Assembly: GCF_004010195.1 (NCBI RefSeq)
Contig: NC_057756.1
Span: 4,371,603 to 4,423,523 of the forward strand
Direction: 5' to 3'
Source of the DNA: Chiloscyllium plagiosum
Lineage: Eukaryota
Length of the DNA stretch: 51,921 nt
In this document: positions 1,540-48,428 of the stretch, one piece after another
Layout of the letters: the number at the start of each line of letters is the position of its first letter
How positions within the stretch are numbered: position 1 is the first letter of the stretch
Translations under genes and position numbers: made by a program
Notes under the pieces: model-generated
Seen by the model: only the letters and a program-made list of their open reading frames with translations
Told to the model about the DNA's origin: nothing
Database searches by the model: none

Positions 1540-1554
1540 ACGAGAATTTGAAGG
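1540..1554 (+). CDS. micro-exon, 15 nt, (D)ENLK
   Basis: gatttgcag|ACGAGAATTTGAAGG|gtaagt; consensus donor. Confidence 0.65.
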
Positions 1555-4500: not shown

Positions 4501-7500
4501 AATAAATGATATAGTCCGACGTGGGCAATCTGCAGTGAATGTAGCTTGTACTGGAAAACAAATGCATAGCACTGTATACAGGATGTTGTGAGGTTCATAC
4601 AGTATGCGACATGCAGCACGAGCAAGAATTTCTTAATTTAATGTGCAATCAACTAAATTTGTCTGTGATCTTGACACTGGGAGAAAGTGAGGACTGTAGA
4701 TGCTGGAGATCAGAGCTGAAAATGTGTTGCTTGGGCTCATGGGACCAGTTCAGTCAGCCGTACCCTTCCACTGTCACCCTCCTTCGATTGACTGAACTGG
4801 TCCTCACTCTGAACAACTTCTCTTTTCAATACTTCCACTTCCTCCAAACCAAAGGAATCGCCATGGGCACCCGCATGGGCCCCAGCTATGCCTGCCTCTT
4901 CGTAGGATATGTGGAACAGTCCATCTTCCACAGCTACACTGGCACCACTCCCCACCTTTTCCTCTGCTACATCGATGATTGTCTCGGCGCTGCCACGTGC
5001 TCCCACGAGGAGGTTGAACAGTTCATCCACTTTACTAACACCTTCCACTCCGACCTCAAATTTACCTGGACCGTCTCAGACTCCACCCTCCCCTTCTTAG
5101 ACCTCTCCATTTTTATCTCAGGCGACCAAATCAACACGGAGATTTCCTATAAACCGACTAACGCCCACAGCTCCTCCTCCCACCCTGCCCCCTGTAAAAA
5201 CGCCATCCCATATTCCCAATTCCTTCGTCTCCGCCGCATCTGCTCCCAGGAGGACCAGTTTCAATACTGAACAATCCAGATGGCCTCCTTCTTCAAAGAC
5301 TGCAATTTCCCCCCAGACGTGATCGATGATGTTCTCCACCGCATCTCCTCCACTTCCCGCACCTCCGCCCTTGAGCCACGCCCCTCCAATCGCCACCAGG
5401 ACAGAACCCCACTTGTCCTCACCTATCACCCCACCAACCTCCATATACATTGTATCATTCGTCGTCATTTCCGCCACCTCCAAACAGACCTCATCACCAG
5501 GGATATATTTCCCTCCCCTCCACTATCAGCGTTCCGAAAAGACCACTCCCTCCGTGACTCCCTCGTCAGGNNNNNNNNNNNNNNNNNNNNNNNNNNNNNN
5601 NNNNNNNNNNNNNNNNNNNNNNNNNNNNNNNNNNNNNNNNNNNNNNNNNNNNNNNNNNNNNNNNNNNNNNNNNNNNNNNNNNNNNNNNNNNNNNNNNNNN
5701 NNNNNNNNNNNNNNNNNNNNNNNNNNNNNNNNNNNNNNNNNNNNNNNNNNNNNNNNNNNNNNNNNNNNNNNNNNNNNNNNNNNNNNNNNNNNNNNNNNNN
5801 NNNNNNNNNNNNNNNNNNNNNNNNNNNNNNNCTCCGGCCTATCACCCTCACCTTAACCTCCTTCCACCTATCGCATTTCCAACGCCCCTCCCCCAAGTCC
5901 CTCCTCCCTACCTTTTATCTTAGCCTGCTGGAAACACTTTCCTCATTCCTGAAGAAGGGCTCATGCCCGAAACGTCGATTCTCCTGCTCCTTGGATGCTG
6001 CCTGACCTGCTGCGCTTTTCCAGCAACACATTTTCAGCTGTGATCTTGACACACTCAGTGAGCAATAGAGGTAAATTATTCAATCGAAATGGCTGCCTGA
6101 AGCACAAATACTTCAGATTTGTCAACATCGTCATTGCAATGGAAATCATCAAATACTTGATTGAATCACTCTTTGGATTCTCGCAATTTTCATATCGTCA
6201 ATATAATTTATTGTTTCAGATACAATACATCAAATTTAAATTTATACAATACACAAGTGGTGATGTTATATTTTTTATGAGCATCCTTTCAAAAGTCAAG
6301 AAAAACTATGAAATCATAAACGATATTGTATGAACAATATCTGAACAAACTCAACAATTTTAATTAAATACATCAAATTTAATTGTCATGCTTCCTTCTC
6401 ACAGATGAACAGCTGAAAGCAAAGCAAAAAGGTTCACATTCCTATGATTCGAATAGCAAATTTGCTAACGTCGGAGAATTAATTTGAGAATTTTGTTTTG
6501 TCCTCACGTGACAGTTTGCATACTTCATGTGTGTTGATTAGTTAACATTAGTGCTGAGGCCAGAAACTTTTACACTTTTCTTGATCATCGCAAGGCTGTT
6601 GCATAAAAAAATTTATAGATCATGCACATTCTTGTGGGACTGGAGTCTTATGCACAGGTATTAAATTGTCTTCATTACAGAACATGAATAATACACACAA
6701 ATATTTCGCAGAAATGAGTTTAGCTTCGTGACGTTATTATTGGCGTTTGAATCTAAACGTTATAAATTCATTCAATATTTCTCTCGTGTTTATAGTGGAA
6801 TTCGTACTCAGATCATTATTCTGCATAAGACTTTCAATTTCAGTGGGATTACCATGATGATACCGTGCCGTTTTATTTTTGTGGACATTAATGTAAGACG
6901 CCAAAGTTGTGGGGGCGTTCAAACGACTAAAATGTTGGAAGACATTTCTCTTGTAGTGAAGCCAAATCAGGAACACTAAATATCAGATTATATTGGCACT
7001 GATAATATCTGTTCATACGTAAATGATGGGTATTTCTGCATGAGTGCTCGACACAAACATGCACAATTCCTAATCCTCTTCATCAACACTTCATGATCAA
7101 AGTTCACTTGCACCTGCCATACACAATAAAGGCGATATGGAAATGGCATTCATCAAATGTAAGTTAGATAGATGGAACAGGAGGAAGGAGAGATACCTGG
7201 GAATGCGAAGGGCAAGTTTATAGTAGGCAGAACATACATGTCCCAGCAGTAGACAATGATAATGGACGTGCGAGGGGAAAAATGTTTCTTGTGGGGTAGA
7301 TTGTGATTTGCAATTGTTCCTCCCAATGACCTTTCCTCTCCCTTCTAGCTTTTAAAACTCTGCTCTAATTTTCCCTACTCTTTGCTACATCAAGGTGCTC
7401 CTGGACCTTTCTCTTCCAACCTCGTTTTATTTGAAACTCCGTTCAAAGCCTGTCTTGGATCTTTCCTCTATTCCTTCCTCGCATCTTGCCTGGACTCATC

Positions 7501-10500: not shown

Positions 10501-13500
10501 GCGCAAGGACGCCTCATCTTCCAACTTGGGACTGGCAACCATACAGCATCAACATCGACTTCGCCAGTTTGTCCATTTCTACTCTCCTCACCTCACTCCA
10601 GATCCAACATTCCAACTCAGCAACACGCTCTTGAACTTGCCTATCTGTCCATCTTCCTTCCTACATATTTGCTCCACTCTTCCCTCCGACCTATCGCCAT
10701 CATCCCCAACTGGATTTGTGAATCGCCTACCCAGCTACCTTCCCGTCAACCCCAACCTCCTTTTTACCTTTTAGCCCCCTTCTCCACTCCACTCCACATT
10801 CCTTATGAAGGGTTTATGCCCAAAACGTCGCCTTTTTTTTTTGCTCGTATGCTGCCTGGTCTGCTGTGCTTGTCCAGCGTCATAGTTTTCGACCTTAACA
10901 GGAAGAATGCAACATTTAAAAAGAGGAGAAGTCATTTTGAATGTGTTAGTGTCTGCAGGGTGGCATAAGGAATAACAAATATCAATACTTTTCTGTTGAT
11001 ATTTCAGAGTTAAACGATTGTCAAGAACAACTAAAACAGCTAGGTAAATGAAAATAATTATTCTGTTGATTACATAGAGAATATTCAGACGTTCAAGGCT
11101 TTAGCAAATCTCTGCGAGAAGAGAAAACTGCGTACTTTCATTAGCATGTAGGTGGGAAATCGTATCGTGAGCATCATGCATCAAGGCCCATCTGTCAAAT
11201 GGGAACAGCATTCATCATTCTTTGTCTCAAGCAAATATCTGCACTGTGATTTAATGGGCTGATCTTAGACCCAATACTATTTTTTCCAGTATCTCTGCTA
11301 GGCATTTCAACATCTTATATCATGGAAGTTAATATTGGAAAGGAAACTAAACGAATGTAGAGAAATAACAAATCGCTAGCATCTGTTGATAACAAGAAAT
11401 GTGCATAATCATTAAAAAGAAATTAGGAGCAGCAGAATTAGAATCTGTTATTTGCTAGTAATGAACTTCTATGTAAACTCACCCTCCCACAAAGGATAGT
11501 ACCATATAACGACTTACAAATAAACCTGGAAATGTATTTCATGCACATGTGCGTATATTCTATAGTGGGCAGTTTGAATAACAAATAATAGTATAGAAAA
11601 AGAAGACTCAGCATTTATTTGGTTCTACTAACAAGAATCATTGCTGTCAGCCAAAGATAAATGTTGGTTGAATACGCGGTTCTCAATGAAATAGGTTCCA
11701 TTGTTTATGATGTATTCTGCATCTGTACCTCAACTAGAGTATTCATATCTGTCCGCATTTGATCATACACAAATTCTTCTCCTCTCAGCTGTAAGACTTC
11801 TCCTTTGAACATGCAACTTTTCGATACTCATTAATCTTTTTGTTGTGGTGCACAGATAAAATTAAAAAAGGTAAGGAACAGCAGCCACGATCTCAAACAC
11901 TAAATTGTAAAGTCAAAAGTTGAGATCATACAGTATTTCATTTGTAATCATCCTCATGACACAGTGCATTGAAGTTTAAACGAATTATATGAATATCAAT
12001 TTTCTCTGTAGATACTTCTGTTTTTGTCTTCTGTAAACTCTCTTATACTTCCTCACTTTCAGTCAATCCTCCAAGTTCGTTGCCTGCATGGTGTCATGGG
12101 TCACGGCTATGAAACCATTAATATAAACATGTTCATAAACTTTCTAACTTGCATCATTGTTCTTACAGTGCCCAGTGTTGCTAACGTGGAAACAGGGACA
12201 AAAAAAATGATATCACATCCATGCTCATCCCTTCAAAATGTGTCCTTGTAAAATCAATGAAAGTTTATTATTTGCTCCATGTTTGCCAATCTGCTTTGTT
12301 AATGTAATCAATTTTTGAAAATGTACCTGAACGACACTCAGAACATTAAAAATCCCTAAATGCTTTCCAGTTCTGTAATGTTGACTCTTGGATATTCTTG
12401 CAAAATGGAATATCTTACAACATTCTTAACTAACTTGCAGCATTATATAAACCTGAGGTCTACATAATGGTCTTTACTGCCCTTAGTGGACTTCATTTTG
12501 TATTTTAAAAATGTTAAAAATATACCCTGCATAATCACTTCTTCATGATAAATATTGGGAAAATACTATAAACGTGCTTTCAAAAGCTCAACACATGATG
12601 GGGTAAACGAAGCATATCCAAAAAATCTTGACAATTCTGTATCTACTGTCCGCCTTTCAGAACTGACGGGATGTCAAACATTTGTAAAGGAATTAGGTGA
12701 GCATCAGTCAGTTGTATTCTTTTTCAGCACATTGAAAGAAAGCTGAAAAAGCTCTCAATAATACATAAAATGATGTCATCTTCACCTATTAAAAATAGAC
12801 GGTGTGCCAACTGCACATTTTATTCTATCCATCAAAGTTAATTCAGTAATAATTTTTGATTCGTATTTCAGCACAAAACAAGAAATGATTTTTTTAAAAA
12901 CAACAATGAAACTACACACTGTACAGGAGTCATGAATCAATCCATGCACTTTTCGCTATTTGACCCGAAACAGAAGAAAAACTCAACTCGAAAGAAAAAG
13001 GTATTTCTTTTAGTTATTTAAGTTACAAAATAGTTACAAAAGAACAGCTTATGATTAACGAGTGTTTACTTCAGAGTTTCTTGTTTGGTTTAAAACGTGT
13101 TTACCAAAAGATAAATAAACTATACGTTACAGATAAAAACATCCAATTTACTGAATTTATGGTTGGAGTGGAAGGTGATTGCGCCTTCAGTTGTGTAACG
13201 GTGCTGCTCCTTTGACATTCTGTACTTCTTTTTAACGCGACCGTGAAGACAGATGTTCTAATATGTCTGGAATTATCCGCTTGAAAAGGAATTTATGTCT
13301 TTCTTTTAAAATGTTCGTACAATGGAAGCAAATGTCCGGTTCTCCCATTTAGGGTTTGGTTTGGTTTGGTTTTAGCAAACAGTTTGTTTGAAGCTGGTGG
13401 TCAAGTTTTAACTGAAGAAATTTTTTCTCTCTCTCTCTCTCTCTGTCTCTCTGCTCTCTCTCTCTGTCTGTCTCTCTCTGACATCTCTCCTGTAAAAACG

Positions 13501-16500
13501 TGTCTTTGGGTTTACTTTTTTTTTTGCCAAGGGAATGTTTATAGGGATGGTGCAAGTAATTGGAATGCCATCCTTAAGTTGTGAAAGAGGCAATTGCTTT
13601 TCAGAAAGGTCAATTTCTTCTAAATTCAGTTCTCTTTTGTTCGTGTTTCATTCAGTAATCTTTAATTAACTTCTGGTTTATTTAATATTAAGTGGTTGAC
13701 CAGCTGTATCACTGCTGGAATGTCCGCTGTACACCAGTTTACAACAAAGAAAAACGTTACGTCCTGGATTACCATCTTCAGATATTTTGAGGGGATGTGA
13801 CCTGGTCCTTAACAGTTGGAAATCAACAACAAAGGTTCGAGGAAGCACTTTTAATATAAGTTTTTTTTTAAATTGTTTCAGGAATTTCGTGTGCATTTTG
13901 CCTCAGCGGTTTACACTGGTGCCTCACAATGCCAGGGACCTGGTTTCGACTCCAGCCTCGGGCGAATGTCTGTGTAAAGTTTGTACATTCTCCCAGTATC
14001 TATGTTGCTTTCTTACGGGTGCTACGGTTTCCTCCTACAGTCTGAACATGTGCAGTTTAGGTGAATTGGCCATGCTAAGTTACCTATCGTGTTCTAGGAT
14101 GTGATGGTTAGTTGCATTAAATCAGGTGTAAAAGGATAGGGAAATTGGGCTGCCTGGGATACACTTTGGGGTATCGGTATGGATGTGTTGGGCCAAATGG
14201 CCTACTTTCACACTGCAGGGATTCTATGATTCCATGGTTCTGTGAATACATGAATTGTAATGTTTTACTCTTACTTTTTCGAAGGTATTTGCAAATAAAT
14301 TTTAAGGTTTTAACTTTGACAGCTTTGCAGATATGCTGGTACATGAATTTTAATTTATTCATACCACTTTAAGGAAGTTAACTTCAATTATTTGCATGAG
14401 TTTGCAATAATAAAAGATGTGTATATGTCCATGCACTTAAGTAAAGTTTGTGAAGCCCATTTTGTTTCTTATTATTGCTGGAAACCCTACAGTCTGCAAT
14501 TTGTCTTCTTAGTGCTATGGTAGAAATATGGCAAATAATGATTAATCGCATTTTTTTTCTTCTTGAACGAATGGGAAGCAATATGCATTTGAGCTAGGCC
14601 AACGATAATCAGAAACTTTAAGAAATAACTTTTGTACTCCTTGTCTTGTAGTGTTATGTTCTCACTGAAGTGATGAAATGTCTCCTTCAGCCAGCCAGTT
14701 GGAGAAAAAGTTTGAGTTATCCCTAGCTGCATCATTTTGAATCTACGCCAGCATAATCATGAGTGAGCTTTGTCAGTCTCACAGAGACCGACCCAAAAGG
14801 ATGTTGATTTTGCTTTCAGTTGGTACTTGCTTTAGGAGGTTGGAGATGAAGGGTTGGGGTCTCTGCTGCTAGAGTGAAGTTTTAGACAAAGAGACTTCCT
14901 CTGAAAATACGTCTCTTTTTTTTTTCCTTTTCTTTCAACTGGAATGGAGAGAAACAGTACAGGAGAATAATGAATGTGTTTGACTACCTTTGCCAAATGT
15001 TTGTGTTTGTGATGTTGTTTATTTTGGAATACTTGATAAATGGTTATTAATTAACACCTAACTTTGTTTAGTATCACAATGGAGTAAAGTTACGACAAAT
15101 CTCTTTTTTTGGTGTATTTTAACTGTGTTGTAAGAATAATGTTTGGTTGGTAAAATTTTCGTGATAGACTAATAGAATCATATCTGAAATATTTGAGCTA
15201 ATACACTTAGGCGGGCCTAGTCTATTCTGGTCCATAACAACTCTCTGATATGATCTAATAACGAGTTAATTAATCATTTGAGAAGAAATAAAGCAGAAAA
15301 TGGCAGGATAGTATGAAAATGGTAAGTTCGAAAGTGGAATATACAATCACATTTGAAGTGATCTGATCTAGGTGTCGGTTTCTATAAAATAAGAGAGATA
15401 CTGGGCGTGTTTGAAGCGGATGGAGTTGTTTGGGACAGGAATTCGCGTTGTGCTGAATGGGAAATAATAACTGACATTTCAAATTCTGCTATTACAGATC
15501 TTGTAACTTGCAAAGAAACTGTCAAGAATTTAGGTGGGGAATGATTCCATTCGCTTTATATCACTGCTGCTTAATATCACTGTTAAACTTGAATCTTTCT
15601 AAAAATAAGACAGGTGAAAAATATTCACATCACAACTGTAGTTTTGTCCAGATCACAGAATCGTTCACAACAAGGTGCATTTTTATAACTGGTGTTCATT
15701 GTTTCCTTCTTCTATGAAATTACCATATCTCCTGAATGTTTCCCTCACAAGCGTGTATACCAACGTTCCCAGTTATGTGGTTTGTTGCTCCAAACCAATT
15801 TTGTTTTCATAATTAGCTTAAATAAGCAAACCTCTGAAGATTAACTTTTTAAACCGTGGCATCAGTTGAATATGCCAGACTTTCTTTCAGCATCACCGAC
15901 GGTAATAATTTCGAGGTCTTGTCTATTTTAACTAGAGGGTGTTCAAATTTGAGTATATAATAATTGCATTCGGAATCCGTACAGTATATATCCTTTGAAA
16001 CCTAAACGTGTTTCAAAGATTTTGCCAAGGCGCCTTCTTGTATATGGATACTTACATCGCTGAATACATATTAAAATTATTTTGATCAAATGTCCATTGA
16101 TATCTGTATGTTGAGAAAGAAAGATTCAGCAATAGTCACCATCAATAGTAAATCAAGAATAATATGGAGTTGACTCTCAAACGATTCACTATGGCTGTGA
16201 AAATTGGTGAAAATTATCCACGGTGCCTTGCCCTCAGCCTTTGAAGTAGAAGAGGTTTCACTCAAGTCCTACTTCTGAAACTGGTTTTTGATGCTCTTGT
16301 TCAGATAAAATTGTCAAAAATTGCAATTTGCAATTCCAAACAAACAATCACATGTAACAGTAGGATTCATTGGCATTCAACTATATGGTATAAAAAAACG
16401 GATTACCTGAGTGCAGCTCGTTTCAGTGCCATGTTGTCACTGTCGCGAGTTAGCTAAACTGGGGCCTAATTCCTTTAAACATGAATCGTTATGTCCTGAC

Positions 16501-19500
16501 ACATTTGTTTCTGTCTTCCATGTCGAAAATAGGGAAGATCATTATTTATAATGTACATGATCACGTTAAGAATTTGCAGAGAAACGTCCTTGAAAATATA
16601 AGTTTAATACTACCAAGTTACAATGCTAAACTAACGCGATATCAGTTTGGGTTCTGTAAAGATAATGCTGACAAAATTACAATTGCATTCAAAAGTAAAT
16701 TATCTACAATTTATCGTGCCTTGTCAACAGAGCAAAGGCTTGCAGACAAAGATAAAGGTAGGCATTTTTTTTTTTAAAAAAAGAGGCCTTTAAATTTACA
16801 CTTGTTTTAAAATGTATTTCGAAGTAGGTGCAACGAAATTGAACAGAAAATGAAGTGGGAAACTTTTTTCAATTATATCAAAATTGTAAAAAATATAGAA
16901 GACATGCAAAGATAATGCAAGATAAGTCGTAACACTCTTCATGATGAGATATATCATTAATGGTCAAGTAATGGCCCAGTGGTGTCATCACTGGTCTGTT
17001 AATCCAGAGTCCCAGAAAATGCTTTGGGGAGCTAGGTTCGCAGATGGTGAAATTCAGTTTCAAAAATGGAATTTTACGTCTAAATATGAGAAGGAAACGC
17101 TTGTAAGTAACAAAAAAATAAATAAATCTGCCATCCTTACCTGGTCTGGCCTCCATGTGACTCCAGAGCCTCAACAAAGTGATTAAATCGTCACTGCCCC
17201 CGGGAAAACATGGATGGATTTTTAAAAATCCTGGCCTAGTCGGCAATGCCCACATTCCCTGAATGAATTAAATGTAATGAATCCAACTTCGAAATGAATG
17301 TTTCAATCGAACGAAAAATGAATGATGAGAATGTGGAACTTGTCGCTGAATGATCTGAAGGGGAATTATAGGGAAACAAACTCGGAACTAAATGAGGGGG
17401 AAATTGTTCACCCATACTTTCAGATTAATTAGGATATGTAGGAATCATTTATGTTCTATAAAGACGCAGGGAGCAGATGTGATGTAACTTCGGCATTGCA
17501 CAGTATGTGTTATTTGTTTTTCCTATGAACAGCAGAGCTACAATTTATAAGGGTTGGTTCAGAGTCATTCACGAAAGGAATGTCATTTTATTCACATCTA
17601 AAAGAAAAGCAGTTTTCACTGCCACAAACAGGATGCATACTTTCCTGCATTTTGCCTTATATTCCTCTACATTAAACGATGCAGCAAATATTATCAACTG
17701 TATTAGTAACATCGGTTCTTTTTTTCTGATGGAGAAGGATGTGTTTTCTAGGTCAGATACGTAGGCAGGATTGTGCTGATAATCCGCCACCATTACCATG
17801 ACATTTCTGGATTGGAATTGCATTTGCCAAGTTAAGACTTTATATATTTGAGCAGCATTGCATGATAGAATCAACAAAATCTGAAGATATGACCAATCGA
17901 ATGATAATGTTCCACTCCAAAAAGTATTTAGTGTGCACCTGAGAGGAGATGAAATGAAAAAGATGGGGAAACGGCGTCTCATTCATCCTGCGTTGTGAAT
18001 TCACAATTATAAATTACCTATCCACACGTGTCCAAAAAAATTATTTCGTACGTAAATCGACTGTCGAAATGATAGTTGCATAATGTAAACCATATTTCGG
18101 GAATCAAATCAAGTCTATAAAAATATATGCTTTCCAAGTGCGATTTTTAACCTGATTGCCAAATCAATATCAATTCTGCAAGAAGATATAAAGCGATTCT
18201 GAACACCTCCTCGGCAAGATCACTGCCAAAATGTAATTGTCATTTGAACTAAAAGTCAAAACACTTGAAATGAACAATCTTCTTTTTTTTTTAGAAGTTG
18301 TTGAATTTCAGAAGACATGCAGTAAGTAATTGATAGTCTAACAAGAAAACAAGTGTGTAAAACATCTTGTAAAAGCATGTAGAATGCACATTGGCTTTGA
18401 CAAAGCCGTTTATTTCACGTATAAAAATAAGCAGAATAAAACCCTAGAAAATACTTGCTGTTTTATGTTGTCAATTATAATCTCTGAGACACAATATTAT
18501 CTGAAATTTGAAAGTTTCGGCAAAATTGTCATCTGCATCCCATTCAACACATCAGCTGCGTGACTTCAAATTTACAGAAATATGGAAGCAAATTATGGCA
18601 TTAAACTGAAATGAATGCTGCAGTTCTGTAAATTTGCGGAATGGTTTTGAAAGATATAATAGTTTCTGGAGCAGAACAAAAGAGTTTAAGAAAGGAATAA
18701 GACAAAGAGAAATATCGACTCTAGCAGAACGCTCATCCCATAATATAAAATAAATGTTTCTACAAGTTTGCTCAGAGAAACACAGTAACAATAACTAATT
18801 TCTGGAAATGGATCAAACAATAAGACGATGGCTAACGACTTTTATTTTGCTTTCATCGTGACTTTGTGGTGATGGGAGAGATGTGAGAGGGAAACTACGT
18901 TAGAAAAAGTAGGAGAGCAAGCATGATATTCCATAAGTCAATTGCTGCGATTGATGATGAACGTGCCAAATAGAATTGCTCAGAGTACTTGTGATTTTAT
19001 GTGATGCTATCATCACTAAGACAAAGATAATATTACAAACAAAAGATCTGAAAGACGTGTGAAGAAATCCATTTTTTAATTTGAAATTTTTGGAAATAAT
19101 ATGTAACTTGCTACGTATGAGTTTTGAGAAGTAGGGAATATCGAATAACTTAAAAATGTATGTTGAATAGGCATACAACTGGAACAAGCCTGCAAGTTTG
19201 CTGTCGTTGCAATTAGGTTCGATTTGATTATTCTATGGAATGCCAGCTTTGACATTATCGACAAAAATGTATTCTTCCGAGTCAAAGTGATATTTAGGCA
19301 TGATGGGACCATGACAAAAATAAGGTTCCCCAAATTGCTTTATGTGGTAGTTTAATGCAAGTAAATTATTAATTGTTTTCGCTGGAGAGCAACAATTACT
19401 CCCCCTTTGAACAAAACTTCCACTGTCACGAACGACCTTAGAATTTGTTTTTGCTGTAAAGGAAGCACTTTTTTTTTCATTTTGGGTGTTGTTATCACTT

Positions 19501-28500: not shown

Positions 28501-31500
28501 CTTCATTGAAACTCCCATTTCAGATTTCATAACACTCAAGCATGCCTTCAAACCAACTGTGCTACACCATTGGCCAAACATGTTTTAATGTAGTTTTCCA
28601 AATCGAAACCTTCGTTATGTCAGAGTGACATGATAAGCATAGTGAGTTAAACAATGTGCAAGTTCGTCACTGAATTATATCCCTCGACTTCGCTGTAGCT
28701 GGTATCTGAAAATACACAAATGGCAATAAGGGGCTTTTATCTCTTTTGTTTGCAGCTTCATTCAACATTCTATGTAAGACTTCTTGTGTATGGAACTATG
28801 CTGTCCTTTTCACATAAAAGTGTTGTAGGTTACAGAAATAAATTAAAAATTATTTTTTCATTAATTTTTTTAAAAAGTTCATTTTGGCCCAGCAGGCAAA
28901 TTTCTGCCCATCTGGACTTGAAACCATCTGCAATTTATTCAACAGAAATAAACACACTGAAAAGTGAACTTGAAGACTGTGGTAAGTAATAAAAAAGAAA
29001 TGGCCTTCTCCGACCAGGATGTCAACGCATTTATTTTTATTAACCTTATTATTAAAGTTGTAAAATTAAAAAAAAACTATAAAACCTAAATGCTTAGCTG
29101 AAGTAAGTGACGCCAGAATTTCAGTTCTCTAACTGAACTCACCTAACTGTTTCAATTCTGGTGTGAATGGGAATCTGTACTAAACCCTCGGATTATTGGA
29201 AAAATGCGTTGTAATGAGGTGTCTGGCATTGATTGGAGAGTTTCTCAGTTCCAGGCCAGGCCTGCTTAATCCATCTAAGTAAGAGAATGGGCCAAATCAT
29301 TTGAAAATGATTGTTCGATCGTTAGAAGAACGAGAGACTCTGCAGAAGTGAAATCAGTCCCTATGCAAATGCACCACATTGACTAAAATATGCATTTTTT
29401 TGACTAAAATTAATCCAGTGACAAGAGTCAGGCAATAACCATGTCCACCAAGGAAGAAACTTAATATTGTCTTCGGGCATTGATAGAATCTCCATGTTGG
29501 AAGTCCCACGGATAAAAAAAATCGGATTTTGCCATTGATCAGACATTTGACTAGATGGACGACAGAATGAATATGATTACTATACCAGATAAATGAATAA
29601 GTGTCCTGCAGCAAGTAACACACCCCACAATGCACAAAATGTCGGACAACGAAATTGAAAGTACAATTCAGATCCATTTATCTGCATGAAACCTAACACT
29701 GTCAAGGGTAACACTGCTCAGTTCAGAGAAATCACATTTAAAAAAATGTTTAATCTCTCCAAAACCCACGTTCTGTAACAACAATGTTAACCTTATAATA
29801 GACATACTGTCAAAATTCATCTAGCCTCGTTCGGCAGCAATTTCAATCTAAAACTACCAGAATCAGATGAACAGTGGAAACAAATATACAGGAACAGAGA
29901 TACTTATTATGCCTCCTTCGAGATTTTCAGCATCCCTATTCAGAAATATCTCACAGACCAAAATTCTGTAAATCCTACTCCAACAGATTATTGAGACTAC
30001 ATAAGACAAATTGGCCATAGCAGTTCAAAACAATTCCCATCCATCCTTTCCAAATGCAATTAGAAAATGTACAATAAGTGTTACCTTAACAACCAACACC
30101 CTCTTCGAATAAATGTTCATAATAAAGTACCATCAATCAAGCCTGACACGATCATTCTCCTCTGATTTCTCATTGTTAATTTTCTTAAATGCATGCATCT
30201 CATTGTATTAAACTACTCCTTACCAGTAATATGAATCACATTTGCAGCACATATGACGTAGTTATGCACGTCTTTATATCCGTTGTGTATGTAAATGAAC
30301 TATGCAAGTACAAAATTAGTTTTCAGTCCCTAAAATCAGTGGATTGTTAGTCCGAAAAATACTCTTGCTTTAATGACTTCCAGTGAATCATATTCCCTTC
30401 GCTGTAAAAAAAATAAACAAAATAAAATTTCTAACTATCTGCTCTGTAAATCGTACATCACATAATTGTTTACATTGAACCACACAGGGCCAGAAATAGT
30501 GGAGGAAATTCTAGTTACACCTTATGCGTACACACCATGTATATTTATCTTCCAGTGAGTGATTTTTCGCATGAATGTGACATTTATCAAGTTCTTTTGG
30601 CTCTGAAATCCCTTCATGAACAAATATACGTTTTGGAAGAGCTCAACTGAATTCGAAGAACTTTCTACGTTCATCCCGCCATACATTTCTTGTTGTTATA
30701 TTTGTTTTCTTCTCTCCATGATGACTGAAACGCTCAAATGTCCTCCATTTTTAAAAATAATTCCATACTTTTCTTTCAGAGCTTAAGTTTGCAAACAAAG
30801 AAAAGGGTAAAGTATCTCTTGTTATTTTGTCTTCACATCATTACCTTTCTGCAAAGTAAGTCAAAAGTGTCCGTCACATTATTAGAGGTTTATTTATGTC
30901 TGCTTATGAATCATATAACGTATCAGTTGTGATGTCACTTTATGTGTTGTTTTCCTCAATTTTCATTCAATTCACAATGGTAGAATGCACTTTTCAATCG
31001 CAAAAATGAAGCAAAATCGTAGATTATGAATTGAAATTTATTCATGTGGTGCACATTTTCTCTATCTGATGGAAGTATGCAGCCTAATACAAACTAAAAA
31101 GTAGAATACAATGGTAATGTTGATTTACTATGTTCTATCTTACCAGTATGTTATTTGCAGTCTTGAGAACACATATTAGTGAATCCAATAAGATCCTGAA
31201 CAGACTATTCGCAGTCGATGTGAAACTGATCTCTACGTGGGGATTTTAAAAGCAGGAGACTTTTCATAAAGTGGAACTATTGCATCGCTACAGTGATGTG
31301 GAGAAGATGCTCGCACTCTCTTGTGTTTAGAGTTGCGAATTACCCTTCACAAAATGTAACGGAGATGGATGTTTCAATTGATTTTGCACTGAATTTGAGA
31401 CACGTCTAATCAACAGGGCATTCAAGAGTTACAGATGCACATTACAGAAACAGACTCATTCTTGCCTACGAGATATCCTAAATTAATCTTACCCCATTTG

Positions 31501-34500: not shown

Positions 34501-37500
34501 GAAATATTCCATGTGTAAATGTATGTTTCTTTTACAGGTATCAATAAGCTGAAGGAAAGTCTTAACAGTATTGGTAAGTGCAACATTTATTTTATGGTCT
34601 GCCTAGCAGGCTAATGCAAGAAAACGCTATGCAAAACGGATAAAATGACCTCAATGCAAGATGAAGCACATAAGTTATGAATAACGTTTTAAAATATACT
34701 ATTCTTACTCGCTGCTTAATCCACAAGAATAATGTGTTGCAAATGAGAAATACAAGTTTCATACATCTATAACGAACTTTTTTTTTTATTTTCATGTGGA
34801 CGTCATTGCCCTGTATTATATTTAGTGCAATGAGGCATTCCTGGTCTGATGGGTTCAAAACTACAATCTCGCCACTCAAATTGAAGCTCATGGATTACAC
34901 ACATTTGCCAACTTGATTATGCCATCGAGACCATCAAGTGTTCCTCCAGTATGTCAATAATGCTGCACAATTTTTCTCCCTACATCTACTCTGACCTCAG
35001 TGGTAGAAATATGTCAGTATACAGCGCTAACTCAGATTGGAGAAGGCCGTCATTCTCCGTGACTGGATGCAAATCACATTCCTGTTCATTACAATGTGAC
35101 AAAATTATAGCGTTCATAATCCAAAGACAGGTTTATTCCTTATTAGATTAGAGGTATGTGATTGCATCGCCTTCAATGGAGATTTTCGCTGCCCATCGAG
35201 AAGTGTTCAATAGAATACATTCTTTCTCAACACATCACCATTTGTTAACGTTCAATACTTTTGAAATATCACCCATATGTGGAGTAATGCGTGGACCTTA
35301 TGTTATGAAGTCTACCACTAAGAGAGACTGAATGCTGTTCTGAACTGAGAGACTACAATCACCAGTGATGACAAGATAGCAGACCCAGCATGTAATGGAA
35401 AAAACATATATGTAACGTTTGCCTGTGAAATGGATGGCTGAATTGTTTGCTGTTTTCACAACACTTCGAATTTAAACAGTCAGTTTAAATTATGCCCAGA
35501 GATTCTAAATCCCAATCAAATTTGAATTAATTGTTTGCCAACATCGAATCAATGGGACGATCCGATTCTGGGGATATGAAATGTAGGCATTTTGAAAATC
35601 GGACAGAGCAATTGCTATTAACACAATCCAAGAAAGGAGGAATTCTGTCTATCAAAGGAAAGTGTTCATTTGAAACATATTCGCAGTTAAAAGGAAGAAG
35701 ACAACTTCGGGAGACTTTCAGCTGGAAGGAGACAAACACCAAAGACGACGGACACTGTGTCGTTTTGAAATTAAGTTGATGCCATCTTAATTGATGTTTT
35801 ATTGGAACAATATATGTTGTGGAGTTGAAGATAGAAAATAAAATTTAAGAGAAAGGGGGCGGTGAATAGTTAATGTTTAATGTTCACGTTCACAGTTTAA
35901 AAAGAAACTAATGTTATTTTCATTAAATAGTGAAATTTGGGGAGTTCACGGCCACTCAGGTTTTATGGATTACGAGGCGAGTTGAGCTTTTCTGAATGTT
36001 TGGTTTAATTAACAGAAGGGTCCACTGCCGTGGAACAACAGTAGCCAAATGGATGGGGTAGTGGGAGGAATGAGAACTGGACTTTAAGCACAGTGTCTTA
36101 TTTGACAATTGCTTCAAAATGCGATTTGCGAGCAGTGAAATTGTGTCCTTGATGAAGTCGCAGTCAAATTTATTTTCAGGATGTGTGCTAGTCCTGCATG
36201 CATAGAAATCTCATTATGATGAAGAACAAATGATCATTTCTGCTCGATTTTTTGTGAGTCGAAATAACGTAAAAGCAAAGACTTTCTTTTCCTCACATTG
36301 GACAGATGGATATTATATTGTACTGCTACACGAGTATGTGGGTGGGACTGTTGCTTTTCTGGAGGTGACTCACAGGATAAGAAAGGTTGATTCAGCATTT
36401 TCTCCAAAGATGCTACCCGACGTGCTGAGTTTTTTTTTCAGCAATTGCTGATTATTGTTTGTTTAGAACTGATGCTACTGTTTTCAATTCAGCGAATTAC
36501 ACTTTTGAATTCTGGCTCTGTTGAAACGCATGCCTTCAGATATCTTTATCTTCTTGTCGTGTTCTTTTCTCGTAAAAGAATATCCCACTTCAAGTACATT
36601 GGGCCACTGTGCATTCACAAAGTGTCAGAGAGTCATACAGCACAGAGACAGACTCTTCAGTCCAACTCGTCCATGCAGACCAGGTACACTAAACTAACTA
36701 ATCCTATTTCCCTGCGTTCAACCCATAAAACTTTGAACTTTTCCTATTCGTGTACATATCTGCATGTCTACATGTCTTTTTACAGTTGTAATTCTACCCA
36801 ACAGTGGAATTACAGTTGGGTAGAATTACAGTCGTTGGGCAGTGCATTCCATACAGGAACCACATACTATGTGAAAATATATGCCTCAGGTCTCATTAAA
36901 ATGTTTCCCCACTCGCTTTAAAATAATGCTCACAAGTTTTGGACCCTTGGAAAACTATCTTGTTTGTTCACGTTATCAGTGGAACTCTTGATTTTATCAA
37001 TCTCCTAAATCTCAGGTAAAAGCTTCCCAGGCTATCAAACCTCACCTTGTACCTCAGAATTACTAGTTATGACCACAACATGTTTTACTCTATTCTTTGT
37101 TTTTTAACATTCTTCCTATAGCAGAGCGAACAGAATCAGATGTCGTTTTCCAAAGGTGGCCTTACCAATGTCTTGTATAGCCAAAATATGATGTCCCAAC
37201 ATCTAGAGTTAATGTTCTCATCAATGGTAACAAGCTAGCCAAGTGTTTTATTCAAAATACTGTCATCCTACAATAACACTTTCAGGGAACCACGTGGCAT
37301 GCTCCCCTCAGTCCCTCTCTTTAATAATACACCCCAACGCCTGGCCATTAACTATGCAATTTCTGTCCGATTTGCCTAATGTTTGAAGATTGCAAGGAAA
37401 GTTAGAATAACCGAATCCCTACAGTGCATAAGAGGCTATTTGGAGCAAGGATCTGCTCCAAACGCCGAAAAGCATCCACCTAGGCATAGACCACACCTTA

Positions 37501-46500: not shown

Positions 46501-48428
46501 CTTCGTTTAGATGATTACATTGTCAAACGTATTTGGACCACATTTCGTTCGGAACCAGATCTGTTAAAGGAACTCTCGCAGGATCTTGACGTACACTAAC
46601 TTAAAGTTGTAAAAGTCACTGCCTCAAATAAGAGGATCGATGTAAATTTCCAAAGACCAGTAATTGAAATAATAATCAGCTGTCCCCAAAGTTTATTTTC
46701 TGTTGATGATATGTTGAAATAGAGTGCAATATAGAAGGACAGTGTTTGGAAAGTAAAAGTTCTGTCAGAAAATGGCAGTAACTTGATGTCATGATAAGCT
46801 TTGCCAAATTTAACCTTGCAAAGACAGTTGTGACTACCTTGTCCGTTCGACTAGGCCATACCATACGCTGTCAAGAGGGAAAAATGCATTCATTTGTGCA
46901 TTTTCACATTATGAACACTAAGTGGGCAACAATAGGTTTATTTATCGATGAGTTATTTCGAGAAAAAAGGTGTAAGATCACTAATACAAATGACCAATGA
47001 ACAGGTGCATTCTAAACAACATCTAGGTAATATGTTATGTGTGCATAAAGAACTTTTCAGGAGTAAAATGCCAGTTTGTTGATAAACCAATGTTGACTGC
47101 TTGGAATTTGTTAATGCGTTCAAGGTGGAGACCTATGAAAGTGACCTGGAATAAATGCTTGCTATAAAGGGATAATTTGAACAAAGAGAGAAACACCTTC
47201 ACACCAATTGAGAAAACTTATGTCAACTCTCGTGCACATACAATCAAGTGAAATAAAGAAACCCAAAGCCTTTGTTTTTCATTCTTGCAGGTAACATTGA
47301 GTGTGATATATTCAGGAGTCTCAAAAACGAATATTCCAAGATATGTTAGGCAGATGACGTTTATGAAGTGCAATCTCAACTGGAGAGAATAAATTTCAAA
47401 AACTGGTACATTTTGTTAGATAGTCTTGAAGCAGGTTCAGCAGGAAGTATAAAACAAACGAGTTGAGATAGTAAAATACTTCCCTAACATTTGGGAAGCT
47501 TTACAGTCAAGTAATAATATCATCCGAACTCTGTAATCTCTATCTTTGAAGAATGAATAACGCAACAACAAATTGATTGGATTTAACATCCTGAAGTTAT
47601 GGATTTTACCAGAATCTTGAAACAACTGCAGGGCTTCGAAATCGACTATTGTAGGATATCAAAAGAAAGACAAATCAAATAATTGAACACTTACGGATGT
47701 TTTCCAACAGAGGGAAACATACTGCAGTAAGCGTTTTGACCCAATGAATCTTGGGTGACTGACAAAACAAGGAGGTGAATACATGCTGCTGAAGATTTTG
47801 AACATGTTGGAAATCTTCAATGGAAAGTTTCAGAGATATTATGAAAGAATGACTTGAAAAACAAAAGCTTCAAAATAAAACAAAACAAAGTATTACCTCT
47901 TCAAAACAAAAGTTCACAGCTTGGCAAAGTAAAAGATCCTGCAGAGGACTTCTAGTCTCCTCAGCCTCCATTGATTTGGAGTAAACAACTCGTGTTAAAT
48001 CGCAAAAAAAAAGCAAAGTGAAAGGAAATATGCACTTGGACTTTGCAACTTCAACGTCATGTGCAATATTACTAAAGTTAAATGAGAGCAAAAAAAACAA
48101 TTTTCTTGGAACATTTTGAAATAGTCCATGTCACTTCGGAAATTGTTAACTTTTTGATCTTGGTTTCATTCTCTTCTTTTCGCAGAAATAAAACTTTTAT
48201 TGTTTTGCTTGGTTTCCTTTTTTAATTTGATATTTCATTGATTTCATTTATGTTCTTCTATACACTCTAACTTAAATGTCAGCTTTCATCAAAACATTGG
48301 TGAAACCATATTTGAAGTTAAAGGCTTTTGATTCTTTGCTTGAGTATTTTATTAGTTGTGATGAAGATAATATCACTTAGTTTTACATATTCTCCAAACA
48401 GAGCTAAAACTACGTGAAAAAAACAAGG
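1540..48428 (+). CDS. Internal part of an unidentified multi-micro-exon gene encoding a long coiled coil with a 21-aa repeat (span; exons listed separately)
   Basis: 16-17 AG..GT-bounded segments with lengths divisible by 3, all phase 1 and on the same strand. They mostly alternate between 27 and 36 nt and join without a stop into an E/K/L-rich heptad sequence. Confidence 0.8.
2781..2856 (-). pseudogene. Degenerate tRNA-Pro(TGG)-like sequence
   Basis: Reverse strand reads ggagcATGATTCTCACTTTGG-aggatgataggaatcc-AGGGGTCTCAAGTTCAAATCCTGGcacaag, resembling vertebrate tRNA-Pro (ATGATTCTCGCTTTGG..GGTCCCGGGTTCAAATCCCGG); stems are disrupted. Confidence 0.6.
2861..2927 (-). pseudogene. Second tRNA-like or SINE-head remnant with Pol III A/B boxes
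   Basis: Reverse strand has TGGTGTAGTGG (A box) followed by GGTTTCGACCCC (B-box-like). Confidence 0.4.
4422..4427 (+). CDS. candidate 6-nt micro-exon, EC
   Basis: tactcag|AGTGTG|gtaagt; with the 15-nt exon it completes one heptad (DENLKEC), matching the LQEC/LEDC endings of other exons; weak pyrimidine tract. Confidence 0.35.
5571..5831. other. Assembly gap (261 N) inside the Penelope element
   Basis: Run of N. Confidence 0.99.
5944..5982 (+). ncRNA. Minimal type I hammerhead ribozyme motif in the Penelope terminal repeat
   Basis: CTGAAGA-a-GGGC-tcat-GCCC-GAAAC-GTC: both core boxes, helix II, palindromic ACGT helix III and a GUC site. Confidence 0.7.
6405..6431 (+). CDS. micro-exon, 27 nt, DEQLKAKQK
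   Basis: cttccttctcacag|ATGAACAGCTGAAAGCAAAGCAAAAAG|gttcac; donor weak, peptide fits the xxxLxxKxK class. Confidence 0.7.
9090..9200 (+). mobile_element. Decayed Penelope terminus of another family with an eroded hammerhead motif
   Basis: CTGATGA-ag-GAG-cagcaa-CTC-GAAA at 9100-9124. Confidence 0.5.
10031..10895 (+). mobile_element. Older Penelope deletion derivative (inverted 5' part, end of endonuclease, 3' terminus)
   Basis: RLIFQLGT and QPYSINIDF remnants; inverted terminus at 10031-10150; 14-bp flanking duplication taacaggaagaatg at 10017-10030 and 10896-10909. Confidence 0.85.
11008..11043 (+). CDS. micro-exon, 36 nt, ELNDCQEQLKQL
   Basis: atttcag|AGTTAAACGATTGTCAAGAACAACTAAAACAGCTAG|gtaaat. 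Confidence 0.8.
11856..11870 (+). CDS. micro-exon, 15 nt, DKIKK
   Basis: ctttttgttgtggtgcacag|ATAAAATTAAAAAAG|gtaagg; sits between two 36-nt exons where a 27-nt-class exon is expected. Confidence 0.6.
12661..12696 (+). CDS. micro-exon, 36 nt, ELTGCQTFVKEL
   Basis: cgcctttcag|AACTGACGGGATGTCAAACATTTGTAAAGGAATTAG|gtgagc. Confidence 0.8.
12974..13000 (+). CDS. micro-exon, 27 nt, EEKLNSKEK
   Basis: aaacag|AAGAAAAACTCAACTCGAAAGAAAAAG|gtattt. Confidence 0.75.
13330..13814 (+). mobile_element. Possible solo-LTR remnant
   Basis: Ends ctggtccttAACA, similar to ctggtccataACA at 15239 and taccataACA at 27575; 5' boundary unclear. Confidence 0.3.
13426..13488. repeat. Imperfect (CT)n microsatellite
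   Basis: ctctctctct...ctgtctctctctg. Confidence 0.9.
13893..14236 (+). mobile_element. tRNA-derived SINE, HE1-like
   Basis: tRNA head (cctcacaatgccagggacctggtttcgactcc), central tttgtacattctccc..ggtttcctcc domain, LINE-derived tail ending gggattctatgattc. Confidence 0.8.
14650..15239 (+). mobile_element. Possible solo-LTR remnant
   Basis: Starts near TGTTATG and ends ctggtccatAACA (TG..CA with a short tgttatg/cataaca inverted terminus). Confidence 0.35.
15498..15533 (+). CDS. micro-exon, 36 nt, DLVTCKETVKNL
   Basis: ttctgctattacag|ATCTTGTAACTTGCAAAGAAACTGTCAAGAATTTAG|gtgggg. Confidence 0.8.
16731..16757 (+). CDS. micro-exon, 27 nt, EQRLADKDK
   Basis: ccttgtcaacag|AGCAAAGGCTTGCAGACAAAGATAAAG|gtaggc. 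Confidence 0.8.
16970..17272 (+). mobile_element. Old tRNA-derived SINE
   Basis: TGGCCCAGTGG A box, GGTTCG B box, body ctgccatccttacctggtctggcctccatgtgactccaga, tail gcccacattccctgaatgaattaaa. Confidence 0.65.
18295..18321 (+). CDS. micro-exon, 27 nt, EVVEFQKTC (shortened member of the 36-nt class)
   Basis: long poly-T tract then ag|AAGTTGTTGAATTTCAGAAGACATGCA|gtaagt. Confidence 0.7.
19690..19956. mobile_element. Fold-back Penelope-type short element of a second family with a hammerhead motif
   Basis: 19713-19772 is inverted relative to 19898-19954; the minus strand of 19751-19791 reads GCA-CTGAGGA-t-GTCACCT-agac-AGGGGAC-GAAAC-GTT-TGC. Confidence 0.8.
20200..20690 (-). mobile_element. CR1-type LINE 3' fragment
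   Basis: Minus-strand peptide IRGNLIETYRILN..GKMFPL..RTWEHNHRVK, typical of the CR1 ORF2 C-terminus, plus a 3' tail. Confidence 0.75.
20886..20912 (+). CDS. micro-exon, 27 nt, (K/E)VELEKKES
   Basis: atctttttgcag|AAGTTGAGCTCGAGAAGAAAGAATCAG|gtgaac. Confidence 0.75.
21270..21523 (+). mobile_element. CR1/HER1-type LINE 3' end
   Basis: Encodes YKGDIRGSFFTQRVVNA; ends in a (TTCTATG)n tail. Confidence 0.8.
21723..21758 (+). CDS. micro-exon, 36 nt, EIGDFKTKLQEC
   Basis: ttcactttgtag|AAATCGGAGACTTCAAGACTAAACTTCAAGAGTGCG|gtgaga. Confidence 0.85.
23531..23557 (+). CDS. micro-exon, 27 nt, DEKLKEKTK
   Basis: ttttacttcttggcag|ATGAGAAATTAAAGGAGAAAACAAAAG|gtgatg. Confidence 0.8.
23996..24095 (-). mobile_element. 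Penelope terminal fragment
   Basis: ggagaaagtgaggactgcagatgctggagatcag..aaaagcacagcaggtcaggcagtatccaagaagcaggagaatc matches 4680-4730 and the reverse complement of about 1278-1375. Confidence 0.85.
25815..25902 (+). mobile_element. LINE/SINE 3' tail fragment
   Basis: gggtcagtgtggacttgttgggcggaagggtttgtttccacactgtaag followed by a degenerate (taatc)n tail. Confidence 0.65.
26710..27575 (+). mobile_element. Possible solo-LTR remnant
   Basis: Ends taccatAACA; composition resembles the 13.3 kb and 14.7 kb segments; boundaries approximate. Confidence 0.25.
28946..28981 (+). CDS. micro-exon, 36 nt, EINTLKSELEDC
   Basis: tttattcaacag|AAATAAACACACTGAAAAGTGAACTTGAAGACTGTG|gtaagt. Confidence 0.85.
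30780..30806 (+). CDS. micro-exon, 27 nt, ELKFANKEK
   Basis: cttttctttcag|AGCTTAAGTTTGCAAACAAAGAAAAGG|gtaaag. Confidence 0.8.
31420..33430 (-). mobile_element. Older CR1-type LINE fragment interrupted by a younger copy
   Basis: 3' tail at about 31420; RT homology runs to about 32580 and resumes at 33381 (RRKSCFTNLIE). Confidence 0.75.
32582..33380 (-). mobile_element. Younger 5'-truncated CR1/HER1-type LINE
   Basis: KWQMECNSDKCVVLHFGK, RDLGVKVH, LEYCIRFWSPSYKKDVVKLESVQ and SRTRGHRFRVRRERYKRDLRGNIF in the minus-strand ORFs. Confidence 0.9.
34538..34573 (+). CDS. micro-exon, 36 nt, GINKLKESLNSI
   Basis: tttcttttacag|GTATCAATAAGCTGAAGGAAAGTCTTAACAGTATTG|gtaagt. Confidence 0.85.
36625..37380 (-). 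mobile_element. Decayed CR1-type LINE 3' portion
   Basis: agagtcatacagcacagagacagactcttcagtccaactcgtccatgcagacc tail, colinear with 31420-32140 and 32582-33330. Confidence 0.75.
37403..37530 (-). mobile_element. HE1-like SINE 3' fragment
   Basis: gaatccctacagtg..ccacacc..ccatgtaaccccgcattt is a diverged reverse complement of 14100-14230. Confidence 0.55.
38300..41450 (+). mobile_element. Long, heavily decayed CR1-type LINE (APE endonuclease, RT and 3' tail)
   Basis: FNARS, WDIIAITE, GGVAF, YFRPPNS, FHFPNID, SLVCKLLEGLLRDRI, DLSKAFD and SKFDD remnants in colinear order, with many stops. Confidence 0.85.
42011..43099 (+). repeat. Tandem duplication of about 540 bp (42011-42550 and 42551-43099) including part of an old CR1 3' region that continues to about 43480
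   Basis: Shared anchors such as atcttttctccccagtaatttgcaacaatgaac, gttaagagcaaagttatacg, atatataaaatgttagt and gctaatttct. Confidence 0.9.
48402..48428 (+). CDS. micro-exon, 27 nt, ELKLREKNK
   Basis: ttctccaaacag|AGCTAAAACTACGTGAAAAAAACAAGG|gtaagt. Confidence 0.85.

Follow-up and report, generated by a model that had tools for sequence, protein, structure and literature searches.

Alternating 27- and 36-nucleotide micro-exons in Chiloscyllium plagiosum point to a very large coiled-coil gene with a terminal B30.2 exon

The B30.2 domain is the ligand-binding part of TRIM proteins, pyrin and butyrophilins. Class IV TRIM proteins act in the cytosol and have short coils, which to our knowledge are not encoded by arrays of 27- and 36-nucleotide (nt) exons, and enterophilin is a protein combining a leucine zipper with a B30.2 domain. 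Butyrophilin heptad exons measure 21 nt, and some of them 27 nt. Symmetric exons with lengths in multiples of three allow a product to vary cassette by cassette while the frame is kept, as in tropoelastin, whose exons are all phase 1-1, and in the micro-exon genes of Schistosoma. In the sections of a published account that describe them, butyrophilins carry phase-1 micro-exons coding for a few heptad repeats between the membrane anchor and the terminal B30.2 exon (PMC4046983), and in chicken BG genes a large number of tiny symmetric exons encode a long coiled-coil tail, whose length differs among genes and alleles (PMC4046983, its reference 64). The same sections give the BG exons as being of one kind, of 21 nt (7, sometimes 8 residues) with short introns, and the BG gene plan as an IgV exon and a series of small exons that runs directly into the exon of the 3' untranslated region, without B30.2 (PMC4046983). 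Here we examine a stretch of 51,921 nucleotides of the Chiloscyllium plagiosum genome (hereafter the window; C47:4371603-4423523, + strand, where C47 stands for contig NC_057756.1 of an assembly of 3.56 Gb), in which an initial annotation, made from the letters alone, had proposed a hidden gene of symmetric micro-exons encoding a modular coiled coil.

Our analyses favour, with a probability of roughly 0.6, the reading that the window is the middle of a single + strand gene of at least 328 kb, with at least 42 micro-exons encoding a coiled coil and with a B30.2 domain as last exon. This gene would extend from -121595 to +206417 in window coordinates, which are used beyond the window as well, negative values lying upstream of position 1 and values above 51921 downstream. 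The window is AT-rich (guanine-cytosine content 0.34-0.41) and contains, besides fragments of retroelements, a single N gap (5571-5831). All AG-(N)-GT segments of 27 or 36 nt that are free of stops in phase 1-1 were enumerated on both of its strands, giving 113 (+) and 100 (-) segments of 27 nt and 82 (+) and 90 (-) of 36 nt. Thirteen + strand exons were upheld, seven of 27 nt and six of 36 nt (Table 1), all of them with a YAG acceptor after a pyrimidine tract and a GT donor. Joined in phase 1, they amount to 405 nt and 134 whole codons with no stop, and the resulting peptide is dominated by lysine (29), glutamate (26) and leucine (20), with no proline, tryptophan, tyrosine, histidine or methionine. 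The initial annotation had counted about 17 exons, 468 nt and 156 residues; 13 exons with 405 nt and 135 residues stand, and for these the proposed AG/GT boundaries, phase 1-1, + strand and stop-free join hold, whereas the other four or so were not separable from chance.

Random AG...GT segments in AT-rich, lysine-codon-rich DNA might be thought to mimic such an array, the exons being short and A-rich sequence easily yielding lysine and glutamate codons. The controls refute this explanation, to which we attach practically no weight. On the + strand of the window the motifs of the initial annotation had nine matches at 27 nt and six at 36 nt, and the minus strand had none at either length; 400 strands simulated to the dinucleotide composition of the window averaged 0.135 (27 nt) and 0.125 (36 nt) matches, with maxima of 2 and 2. 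The comparison with the minus strand and with random sequence, which that annotation had itself put forward as a check, hence came out in its favour. A looser second pattern added one + strand and two minus-strand matches, all of poor quality. Position weight matrices covering the exon plus its splice flanks, with training exons scored leave-one-out, were then run over both strands of 311 kb. At 27 nt, 22 of the 684 + strand candidates lay above the best of the 689 minus-strand ones, comprising 18 of the 19 training exons and four other sites; at 36 nt, the corresponding figures were 24 of 559 against the best of 564, comprising all 17 training exons and seven other sites. A length-free scan, combining splice-site matrices with a score for amino acid composition at lengths of 6 to 63 nt, gave a + strand excess over the best minus-strand score of 31 segments at 27 nt and 24 at 36 nt, and of 0 to 4 at each other length. 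This signal, limited to the + strand and to two lengths, holds across 341 kb, and chance is further contradicted by the regular heptad register and by a module shared with the protein of a relative, both described below.

The DNA read on both sides of the window (341 kb in all, -130 to +211 kb) shows that the two exon types go on in the + strand, at least to -121595 upstream and to +190004 downstream. The extent of 1540-48428 proposed at first was thus too narrow, and the size of the gene was underestimated about eightfold. Our working set consists of 42 exons (23 of 27 nt and 19 of 36 nt; 1305 nt), in which the two sizes alternate at 31 of 41 junctions and the gaps between neighbouring exons range from 0.16 to about 29 kb. 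The 27-nt exons follow the consensus E-x-K-L-x-x-K-x-K over 9 residues, and the 36-nt exons E-L-x-x-C/L-x-x-x-L-x-x-L over 12. Since a 27 + 36 pair codes for 21 residues, i.e. three heptads, the joined modules read as one uninterrupted alpha-helical coiled coil with much lysine, glutamate and leucine. The best heptad register is constant along the alternation, shifting at the single 36-36 junction of the window and back at its single 27-27 junction. On our interpretation of the hydrophobic marks, the core of the 9-residue module would be formed by its L and its invariant K, and that of the 12-residue module by L, C/L/F, L/V and L/C/I. The last base is G in 41 of the 42 exons, as a result of which no stop codon is possible at these junctions and most modules start with E, D or G.

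Information content at codon positions 1, 2 and 3 was 1.06, 1.06 and 0.50 in the 27-nt exons and 0.69, 0.94 and 0.39 in the 36-nt exons, and mean pairwise identity was 0.55 and 0.48, respectively, against about 0.29 in flanking intron. The training exons having been chosen by amino acid motif, these figures overstate both how alike the exons are and how far positions 1 and 2 exceed position 3. Exon units with similar spacing have introns without similarity to each other. Taken together, the exons, their strand bias and the heptad register bear out the hidden modular coiled-coil gene of symmetric micro-exons that had been proposed.

Table 1. Micro-exons and related segments of the window. Scores are leave-one-out position weight matrix scores of the exon plus its splice flanks; the best minus-strand score was 14.7 at 27 nt and 2.5 at 36 nt.
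Feature	Inner codons	Position	Strand	Score	Remarks
15-nt segment, possible exon only	ENLK	1540..1554	+		AG/GTAAGT, good splice sites; rank 2/848 (+), matched or beaten by 2/899 (-)
27-nt phase 1-1 exon	EQLKAKQK	6405..6431	+	29.3	cag acceptor with pyrimidine tract, GT donor
36-nt phase 1-1 exon	LNDCQEQLKQL	11008..11043	+	30.2	Cys-type module
27-nt segment, probable decayed exon	SLLSAKDK	11636..11662	+		AAG acceptor, GTTGGT donor, last base T; position weight matrix score 0.2
36-nt exon	LTGCQTFVKEL	12661..12696	+	38.6	
27-nt exon	EKLNSKEK	12974..13000	+	26.6	
36-nt exon	LVTCKETVKNL	15498..15533	+	25.0	
27-nt exon	QRLADKDK	16731..16757	+	28.4	
27-nt exon	VELEKKES	20886..20912	+	22.7	
36-nt exon	IGDFKTKLQEC	21723..21758	+	23.4	
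27-nt exon	EKLKEKTK	23531..23557	+	38.8	
36-nt exon	INTLKSELEDC	28946..28981	+	25.4	
27-nt exon	LKFANKEK	30780..30806	+	29.2	
36-nt exon	INKLKESLNSI	34538..34573	+	18.2	
27-nt exon	LKLREKNK	48402..48428	+	35.2	inside repeated 4.9-kb block; identical copy at 73189

The 15-nt segment with which the initial annotation had opened the gene does not stand out from minus-strand segments of the same length (Table 1). The segment at 11636-11662 is, to judge from its sequence, probably a decayed 27-nt exon, positioned where the 27/36 alternation calls for one; its final T would give a T|AA stop with the next exon. A further motif-matching 27-nt segment, at 35637-35663 (+), has no pyrimidine tract and looks spurious as an exon. 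Among the 40 differences from the assembly shown for a DNA sequencing run (X1), the sole one within an exon is 12987 C>T, which by our reading of the frame is synonymous (AAC to AAT in exon 12974-13000). Over 11282-13323, a 2043-nt contig of the same run shows 24 differences from the assembly (about 1.2%), which points to high heterozygosity or to DNA of another individual. At 13426-13489 there is a microsatellite, rich in TC and with a period of 25 nt, and reverse-transcriptase-like open reading frames (ORFs; weak RVT_1 match, E 0.0039), broken by the N gap, lie at 4545-6005.

The micro-exons might also be the relic of a dead or dying former gene, no longer spliced into functional mRNA, an explanation that we consider very unlikely. 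No transcript was seen: over 11000-30900, RNA-labelled reads and contigs fall on high-copy repeats, one run (X7) adding trace word depth (<1) in a few other bins, and none of them crosses an exon junction. Besides the decayed exon, 10 of the 41 junctions depart from the alternation, the protein collections hold no protein of this locus, and the best identity of the B30.2 exon described below is 48%. Against decay, all 13 exons of the window keep their YAG/GT sites and an open frame, as well as the final G, the B30.2 ORF is intact over 177 codons with no stop, and introns stand at background identity while exons do not. The missing protein record is to be expected, given that the gene models of this assembly are not in the collection.

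Very high-copy repeats occur at 13656-14319, 16976-17639, 19632-20295, 23616-24279 and 25608-26271. The high-copy bins reach a summed word depth of 3e4 to 4.6e5 in DNA run X1, against about 10-25 in unique bins, and it is in these bins that the RNA-run reads of the region fall.

A B30.2 (PRY-SPRY) exon, for which the initial annotation had suggested looking downstream, is indeed present on the same strand, as an intact ORF of 177 codons starting at window coordinate 205897 (C47:4577498-4578016, +). A whole-genome SPRY search flagged C47:4577660-4577983 (+) with an E of 1.1e-14, and within the ORF the SPRY model (PF00622) scored 65.8 bits against a cut-off of 26.3 (E 4.9e-18), the PRY model giving no report. 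The acceptor reads ttttgcag|TC, and the exon begins on codon base 2, i.e. in phase 1, the phase in which every micro-exon ends, so that it could be spliced in frame from any of them. Solved structures matched it about equally well, including those of TRIM58 (3.5e-19), TRIM21, pyrin, TRIM11 and BTN3A1 (about 1e-16), and the TRIM, pyrin and BTN B30.2 chains align over query residues 3-161. The matches of BTN3A1, BTN2A2 and BTNL have E values of about 1e-16 to 3e-15, that of BTN2A1 being weaker (1e-12). The shared strand and phase, the continuous array and the architecture of the relatives described below would place the array and this exon in one transcript.

Other B30.2 copies of the same type lie on C47 at 994521-995036 (+; 59% identity) and 1296638-1297141 (-; 41%), and on another contig, C37, at 22229878 (40%), 20720070 (33%) and 29369966 (36%). 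C37 carries a very large cluster of SPRY exons.

For other domains, + strand ORFs were compared with Pfam at length limits below which shorter exons would escape: at least 85 residues from -80 to +112 kb (95 ORFs), 38-84 residues from +95.5 to +112 kb (92), at least 42 residues from -100 to -79 kb (120), at least 55 residues from -130 to -100 kb (84) and at least 75 residues from +112 to +211 kb (110); on the minus strand, 49 ORFs of at least 80 residues in the window were included. Apart from the single SPRY exon, the ORFs between -130 and +211 kb yielded retroelement fragments and a handful of weak hits on unrelated families that stayed below the cut-offs (E 5e-4 to 1e-2). No Ig (V-set), RING, B-box, TRIM_CC or lectin exon and no recognisable transmembrane exon was found among these scanned + strand ORFs, and a scan of -100 to -75 kb for a first exon with an ATG and a hydrophobic stretch returned nothing convincing. 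A C-type lectin with a CD23-like neck of 21 residues was considered and rejected, there being no Lectin_C on C47 among the 133 genome-wide candidates scored and none in the downstream ORFs.

An exhaustive HMMER search of 1.84 billion representative sequences with the B30.2 exon identified 2682 B30.2 proteins, none of them from this locus. The nearest by per-domain score are all gene models of cartilaginous fishes. They include a 1697-residue elephant-shark protein (Callorhinchus milii XP_042192744.1, 'nuclear-pore anchor-like'; in its older version, XP_007898089.1, 'myosin-2 heavy chain-like'), the elephant-shark 'TRIM58' XP_042191566.1, the skate 'TRIM69-like' protein Leucoraja erinacea XP_055510696.1, the catshark 'TRIM39-like' proteins Scyliorhinus canicula XP_038668997.1 and XP_038672306.1, the numbfish 'zinc-binding protein A33-like' Narcine bancroftii XP_069775384.1 and a B30.2 model of the basking shark (Cetorhinus). 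Identity to our exon is 45% in the Leucoraja cluster, 42% in the catshark model and 41% in the 1697-residue elephant-shark model. In a maximum likelihood tree (IQ-TREE) of 71 B30.2 domains, made up of this exon and the 70 best per-domain scores of 150, a 100/100 branch unites it with 16 rows from Callorhinchus, Leucoraja, Scyliorhinus, Narcine and Cetorhinus, and the 54 other B30.2 domains, of TRIM, butyrophilin and ERMAP type, fall outside that clade (100/100 branches). The alternative put forward initially, an unrelated new coiled-coil gene, is contradicted by these clear relatives among chimaera, shark, skate and ray gene models.

Models of this clade consist of a coil followed by one terminal B30.2 domain. 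Most are short (202-460 residues) with few coil modules, and only the 1697-residue elephant-shark model is of a size comparable to the gene predicted here. In the six members scanned, Pfam reported SPRY alone, with a weak PRY in one, and no RING, B-box, TRIM_CC or Ig domain. The 1697-residue protein opens with a hydrophobic stretch of 15-17 residues followed by RAKRRKK, and the skate protein opens similarly; other members lack such a stretch at the N-terminus. When a 12-residue matrix derived from the 36-nt exons of our locus was applied to the elephant-shark coil, 9 matches of at least 6 bits were obtained, against 0.94 in composition-matched shuffles, none of 500 of which reached 9, and the top matches all read EL..C...L. 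Furthermore, the two versions of the elephant-shark model have 12 internal differences, eight of which are indels of 9 or 12 residues, most of them starting with E, D or G, as expected of phase-1 exons of 27 and 36 nt; the model sets of catshark, numbfish and the elephant-shark 'TRIM58' contain one 9-residue cassette each, along with 6- and 7-residue ones. This indirect but consistent evidence from protein sequences suggests that 27/36-nt phase-1 cassettes are a family trait in chimaeras and elasmobranchs. The initial annotation had not recognised the 27/36-nt design from any known gene; our literature search likewise found no paper on the design or on this family, but the 9- and 12-residue cassettes of the relatives imply that the design is not unique to this locus.

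Searches other than that with the B30.2 exon were less productive. When the relatives were compared with the locus by tblastn, the B30.2 exon alone matched, the micro-exons being too short. Profiles of 9 and 12 columns were too weak to use in hmmsearch, though the 12-column profile ranks cartilaginous-fish proteins first. When longer proteins were sought with the B30.2 exon as query, distant TRIMs alone were retrieved, and a protein search with the elephant-shark coil retrieved its own two versions only. The 1697-residue model also contains a block of 'KDPTGSTD' repeats, together with another repeat of greater length. Residues 63-118 of the catshark XP_038668997.1 match sequence of retroelement type at dispersed sites on either strand of our locus; a transposon and the B30.2 gene may have been fused in this model.

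Several points weigh against a single gene of the size proposed. The B30.2 exon lies 157 kb past the last exon of the window and 16 kb past the last array exon found, and exons are sparser between +96 and +190 kb, where a gene boundary is possible. A block at 47020-51921, which holds exon 48402, recurs at 71807-76708 with 99.96% identity, and the local assembly is uncertain; the copies are separated by an N stretch of 5.2 kb (51922-57119), further N runs and satellites (57120-59930, 62334-63739 and 64022-71811), and the repeated 4.9-kb block, which doubles the exon, either arose by recent duplication or is an artefact of assembly. The inflated exon identity mentioned above belongs here as well. 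So does the 9-residue matrix, for which the elephant-shark coil shows no enrichment, its 3 matches comparing with an expectation of 1.76 and 131 of 500 shuffles giving at least 3. No match in the Chiloscyllium genome was obtained with residues 1-315 of the 1697-residue elephant-shark protein. The lack of an Ig domain holds as far as -130 kb, the 5' end lying further upstream, and the topology given below is tentative. With RNA-run reads essentially limited to repeats, the array as a spliced transcript is predicted from sequence, and the function proposed for the product is wholly inferred.

Some of these points would agree with a gene that stops before the B30.2 exon, the latter then being part of another, shorter member of the family located downstream. 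In addition to the drop in exon density between +96 and +190 kb and to the N gap, satellite and duplicated block at +52 to +77 kb, the short relatives of 202-460 residues, with few coil modules before B30.2, provide a precedent for such a gene, and the link between array and B30.2 is a predicted one. Nevertheless, array-type exons recur on the same strand throughout the downstream interval from 125098 to 189969 (125098, 133125, 134515, 144362, 173742, 189786 and 189969), neither terminal or first-exon features nor a second B30.2 exon were seen, the nearest other copies on the contig lying more than 3 Mb off, at 0.99 and 1.30 Mb, and the 1697-residue relative with its single terminal B30.2 domain exists. 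We therefore regard an arrangement of two or more tandem genes as unlikely.

Similarly improbable in our assessment is a true butyrophilin or BG-type gene, in which IgV (IgC) and transmembrane exons would lie beyond the DNA read, the array would be a hugely expanded cytoplasmic heptad tail and the B30.2 exon would come last. Phase 1-1 micro-exons followed by a terminal phase-1 B30.2 exon are what such a gene would show, the B30.2 domains of BTN3A1, BTN2A2 and BTNL are among the solved matches, and just 8 kb were read upstream of the first exon found, at -121595. Moreover, the whole-genome V-set search scored 150 of 1319 candidates and is hence uninformative for this locus, so that a nearby V exon could be missed. 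Conversely, no V-set, C-type lectin or other ectodomain exon occurs in the + strand ORFs from -130 to +211 kb, the clade relatives scanned are without Ig domains in Pfam and have N-termini that are soluble or carry a short hydrophobic segment at residue 1, the clade is split from the butyrophilin- and ERMAP-named sequences included among the 54 other B30.2 domains, and the exons measure 27 and 36 nt instead of 21 nt. The initial suggestion of an expanded BTN/BG-like tail was consequently a good lead, which anticipated the terminal B30.2 exon, but it fails the ectodomain test as far as this was run: the upstream IgV, IgC or transmembrane exons that it called for are absent from these ORFs, which stop short of the 5' end.

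Under the single-gene reading, we infer one transcript for all exons and, for its product, a topology, dimerisation and a ligand-binding function. The protein would be an alpha-helical stalk of several hundred residues, rich in lysine, glutamate and leucine, bearing a B30.2 binding head at its end, and the gene would belong to a cartilaginous-fish group combining a coiled coil with B30.2 in the absence of RING, B-box and Ig domains. By analogy with the hydrophobic N-termini of some relatives and with butyrophilin and BG tails, the protein may be cytosolic, possibly anchored to a membrane at its N-terminus and probably dimeric, in which case the stalk would hold the head at a set distance from the anchor. 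Since every exon is symmetric, stalk length is changeable cassette by cassette without a break in the frame, and alternative splicing might add or remove one cassette at a time.

A broader and more tentative proposal, which we consider possible but doubtful, is that such genes form an undescribed class of intracellular B30.2 proteins in cartilaginous fishes, with the head mounted on a stalk of interchangeable 27/36-nt cassettes that would act as a molecular ruler set by splicing. Only the 27 + 36 pair keeps the heptad register, and splicing might thus produce length steps of three heptads, or else deliberate register shifts, adjusting the reach e.g. from a membrane anchor to a captured viral capsid or vesicle. 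This design may even be ancestral to the short heptad tails of butyrophilins and to the tails of bird BG proteins with their 21-nt exons.

A gene of at least 328 kb coded almost only by exons of 9 and 12 codons would escape ORF finders and cause difficulty to standard aligners, and the public names of its relatives ('nuclear-pore anchor-like', 'myosin-2 heavy chain-like', 'TRIM39-like') are misleading. With the 27/36-nt signature, genes of this kind could be located and their models corrected in a simple manner in the genomes of sharks, rays and chimaeras. Given that B30.2 is the binding head of TRIM restriction factors, pyrin and butyrophilins, a long, cassette-adjustable stalk without RING or Ig domains would, if true, represent a new arrangement of an innate-immunity module in the oldest living jawed vertebrates, and would bear on the origin of butyrophilin and BG tails. 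Its significance for both annotation and biology hinges on transcripts of the predicted gene.

Compared with the systems described at the outset, and for butyrophilins and BG genes within what the cited sections report, the locus combines familiar traits in an unfamiliar way. With butyrophilins (BTN/BTNL, ERMAP) it shares phase-1 heptad micro-exons and a terminal B30.2 exon, the domain resembling that of BTN3A1 at about 1e-16, but the IgV/IgC ectodomains of those proteins were not found in the scanned ORFs of the locus or in the scanned clade relatives, and its B30.2 domain lies outside the branch holding the butyrophilin-named sequences. Chicken BG is the closest analogue as regards the encoding of a stalk by tiny symmetric exons, and the heptad region in phase 1-1 exons with split codons, typical of butyrophilins and BG genes, is present here; the sizes are nonetheless 27 and 36 nt against 21 nt in BG, two alternating lengths (9 + 12 = 21 residues) replace the single kind, and the introns measure 0.16 to about 29 kb. 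Class IV TRIM proteins (TRIM21, TRIM58, TRIM39) and pyrin likewise combine a coiled coil with B30.2, and most of the relatives are named 'TRIM-like' by NCBI, yet RING, B-box and TRIM_CC were not found in the relatives or in the scanned ORFs of the locus, to -130 kb. Tropoelastin and the Schistosoma micro-exon genes provide an analogy of gene design only, elastin being rich in glycine, proline and valine and the schistosome products being secreted peptides. What sets this gene apart from all of them, along with the lack of Ig, RING and B-box domains in the scanned span, is that its exons alternate between two sizes, that the array is so large and that the introns are long.

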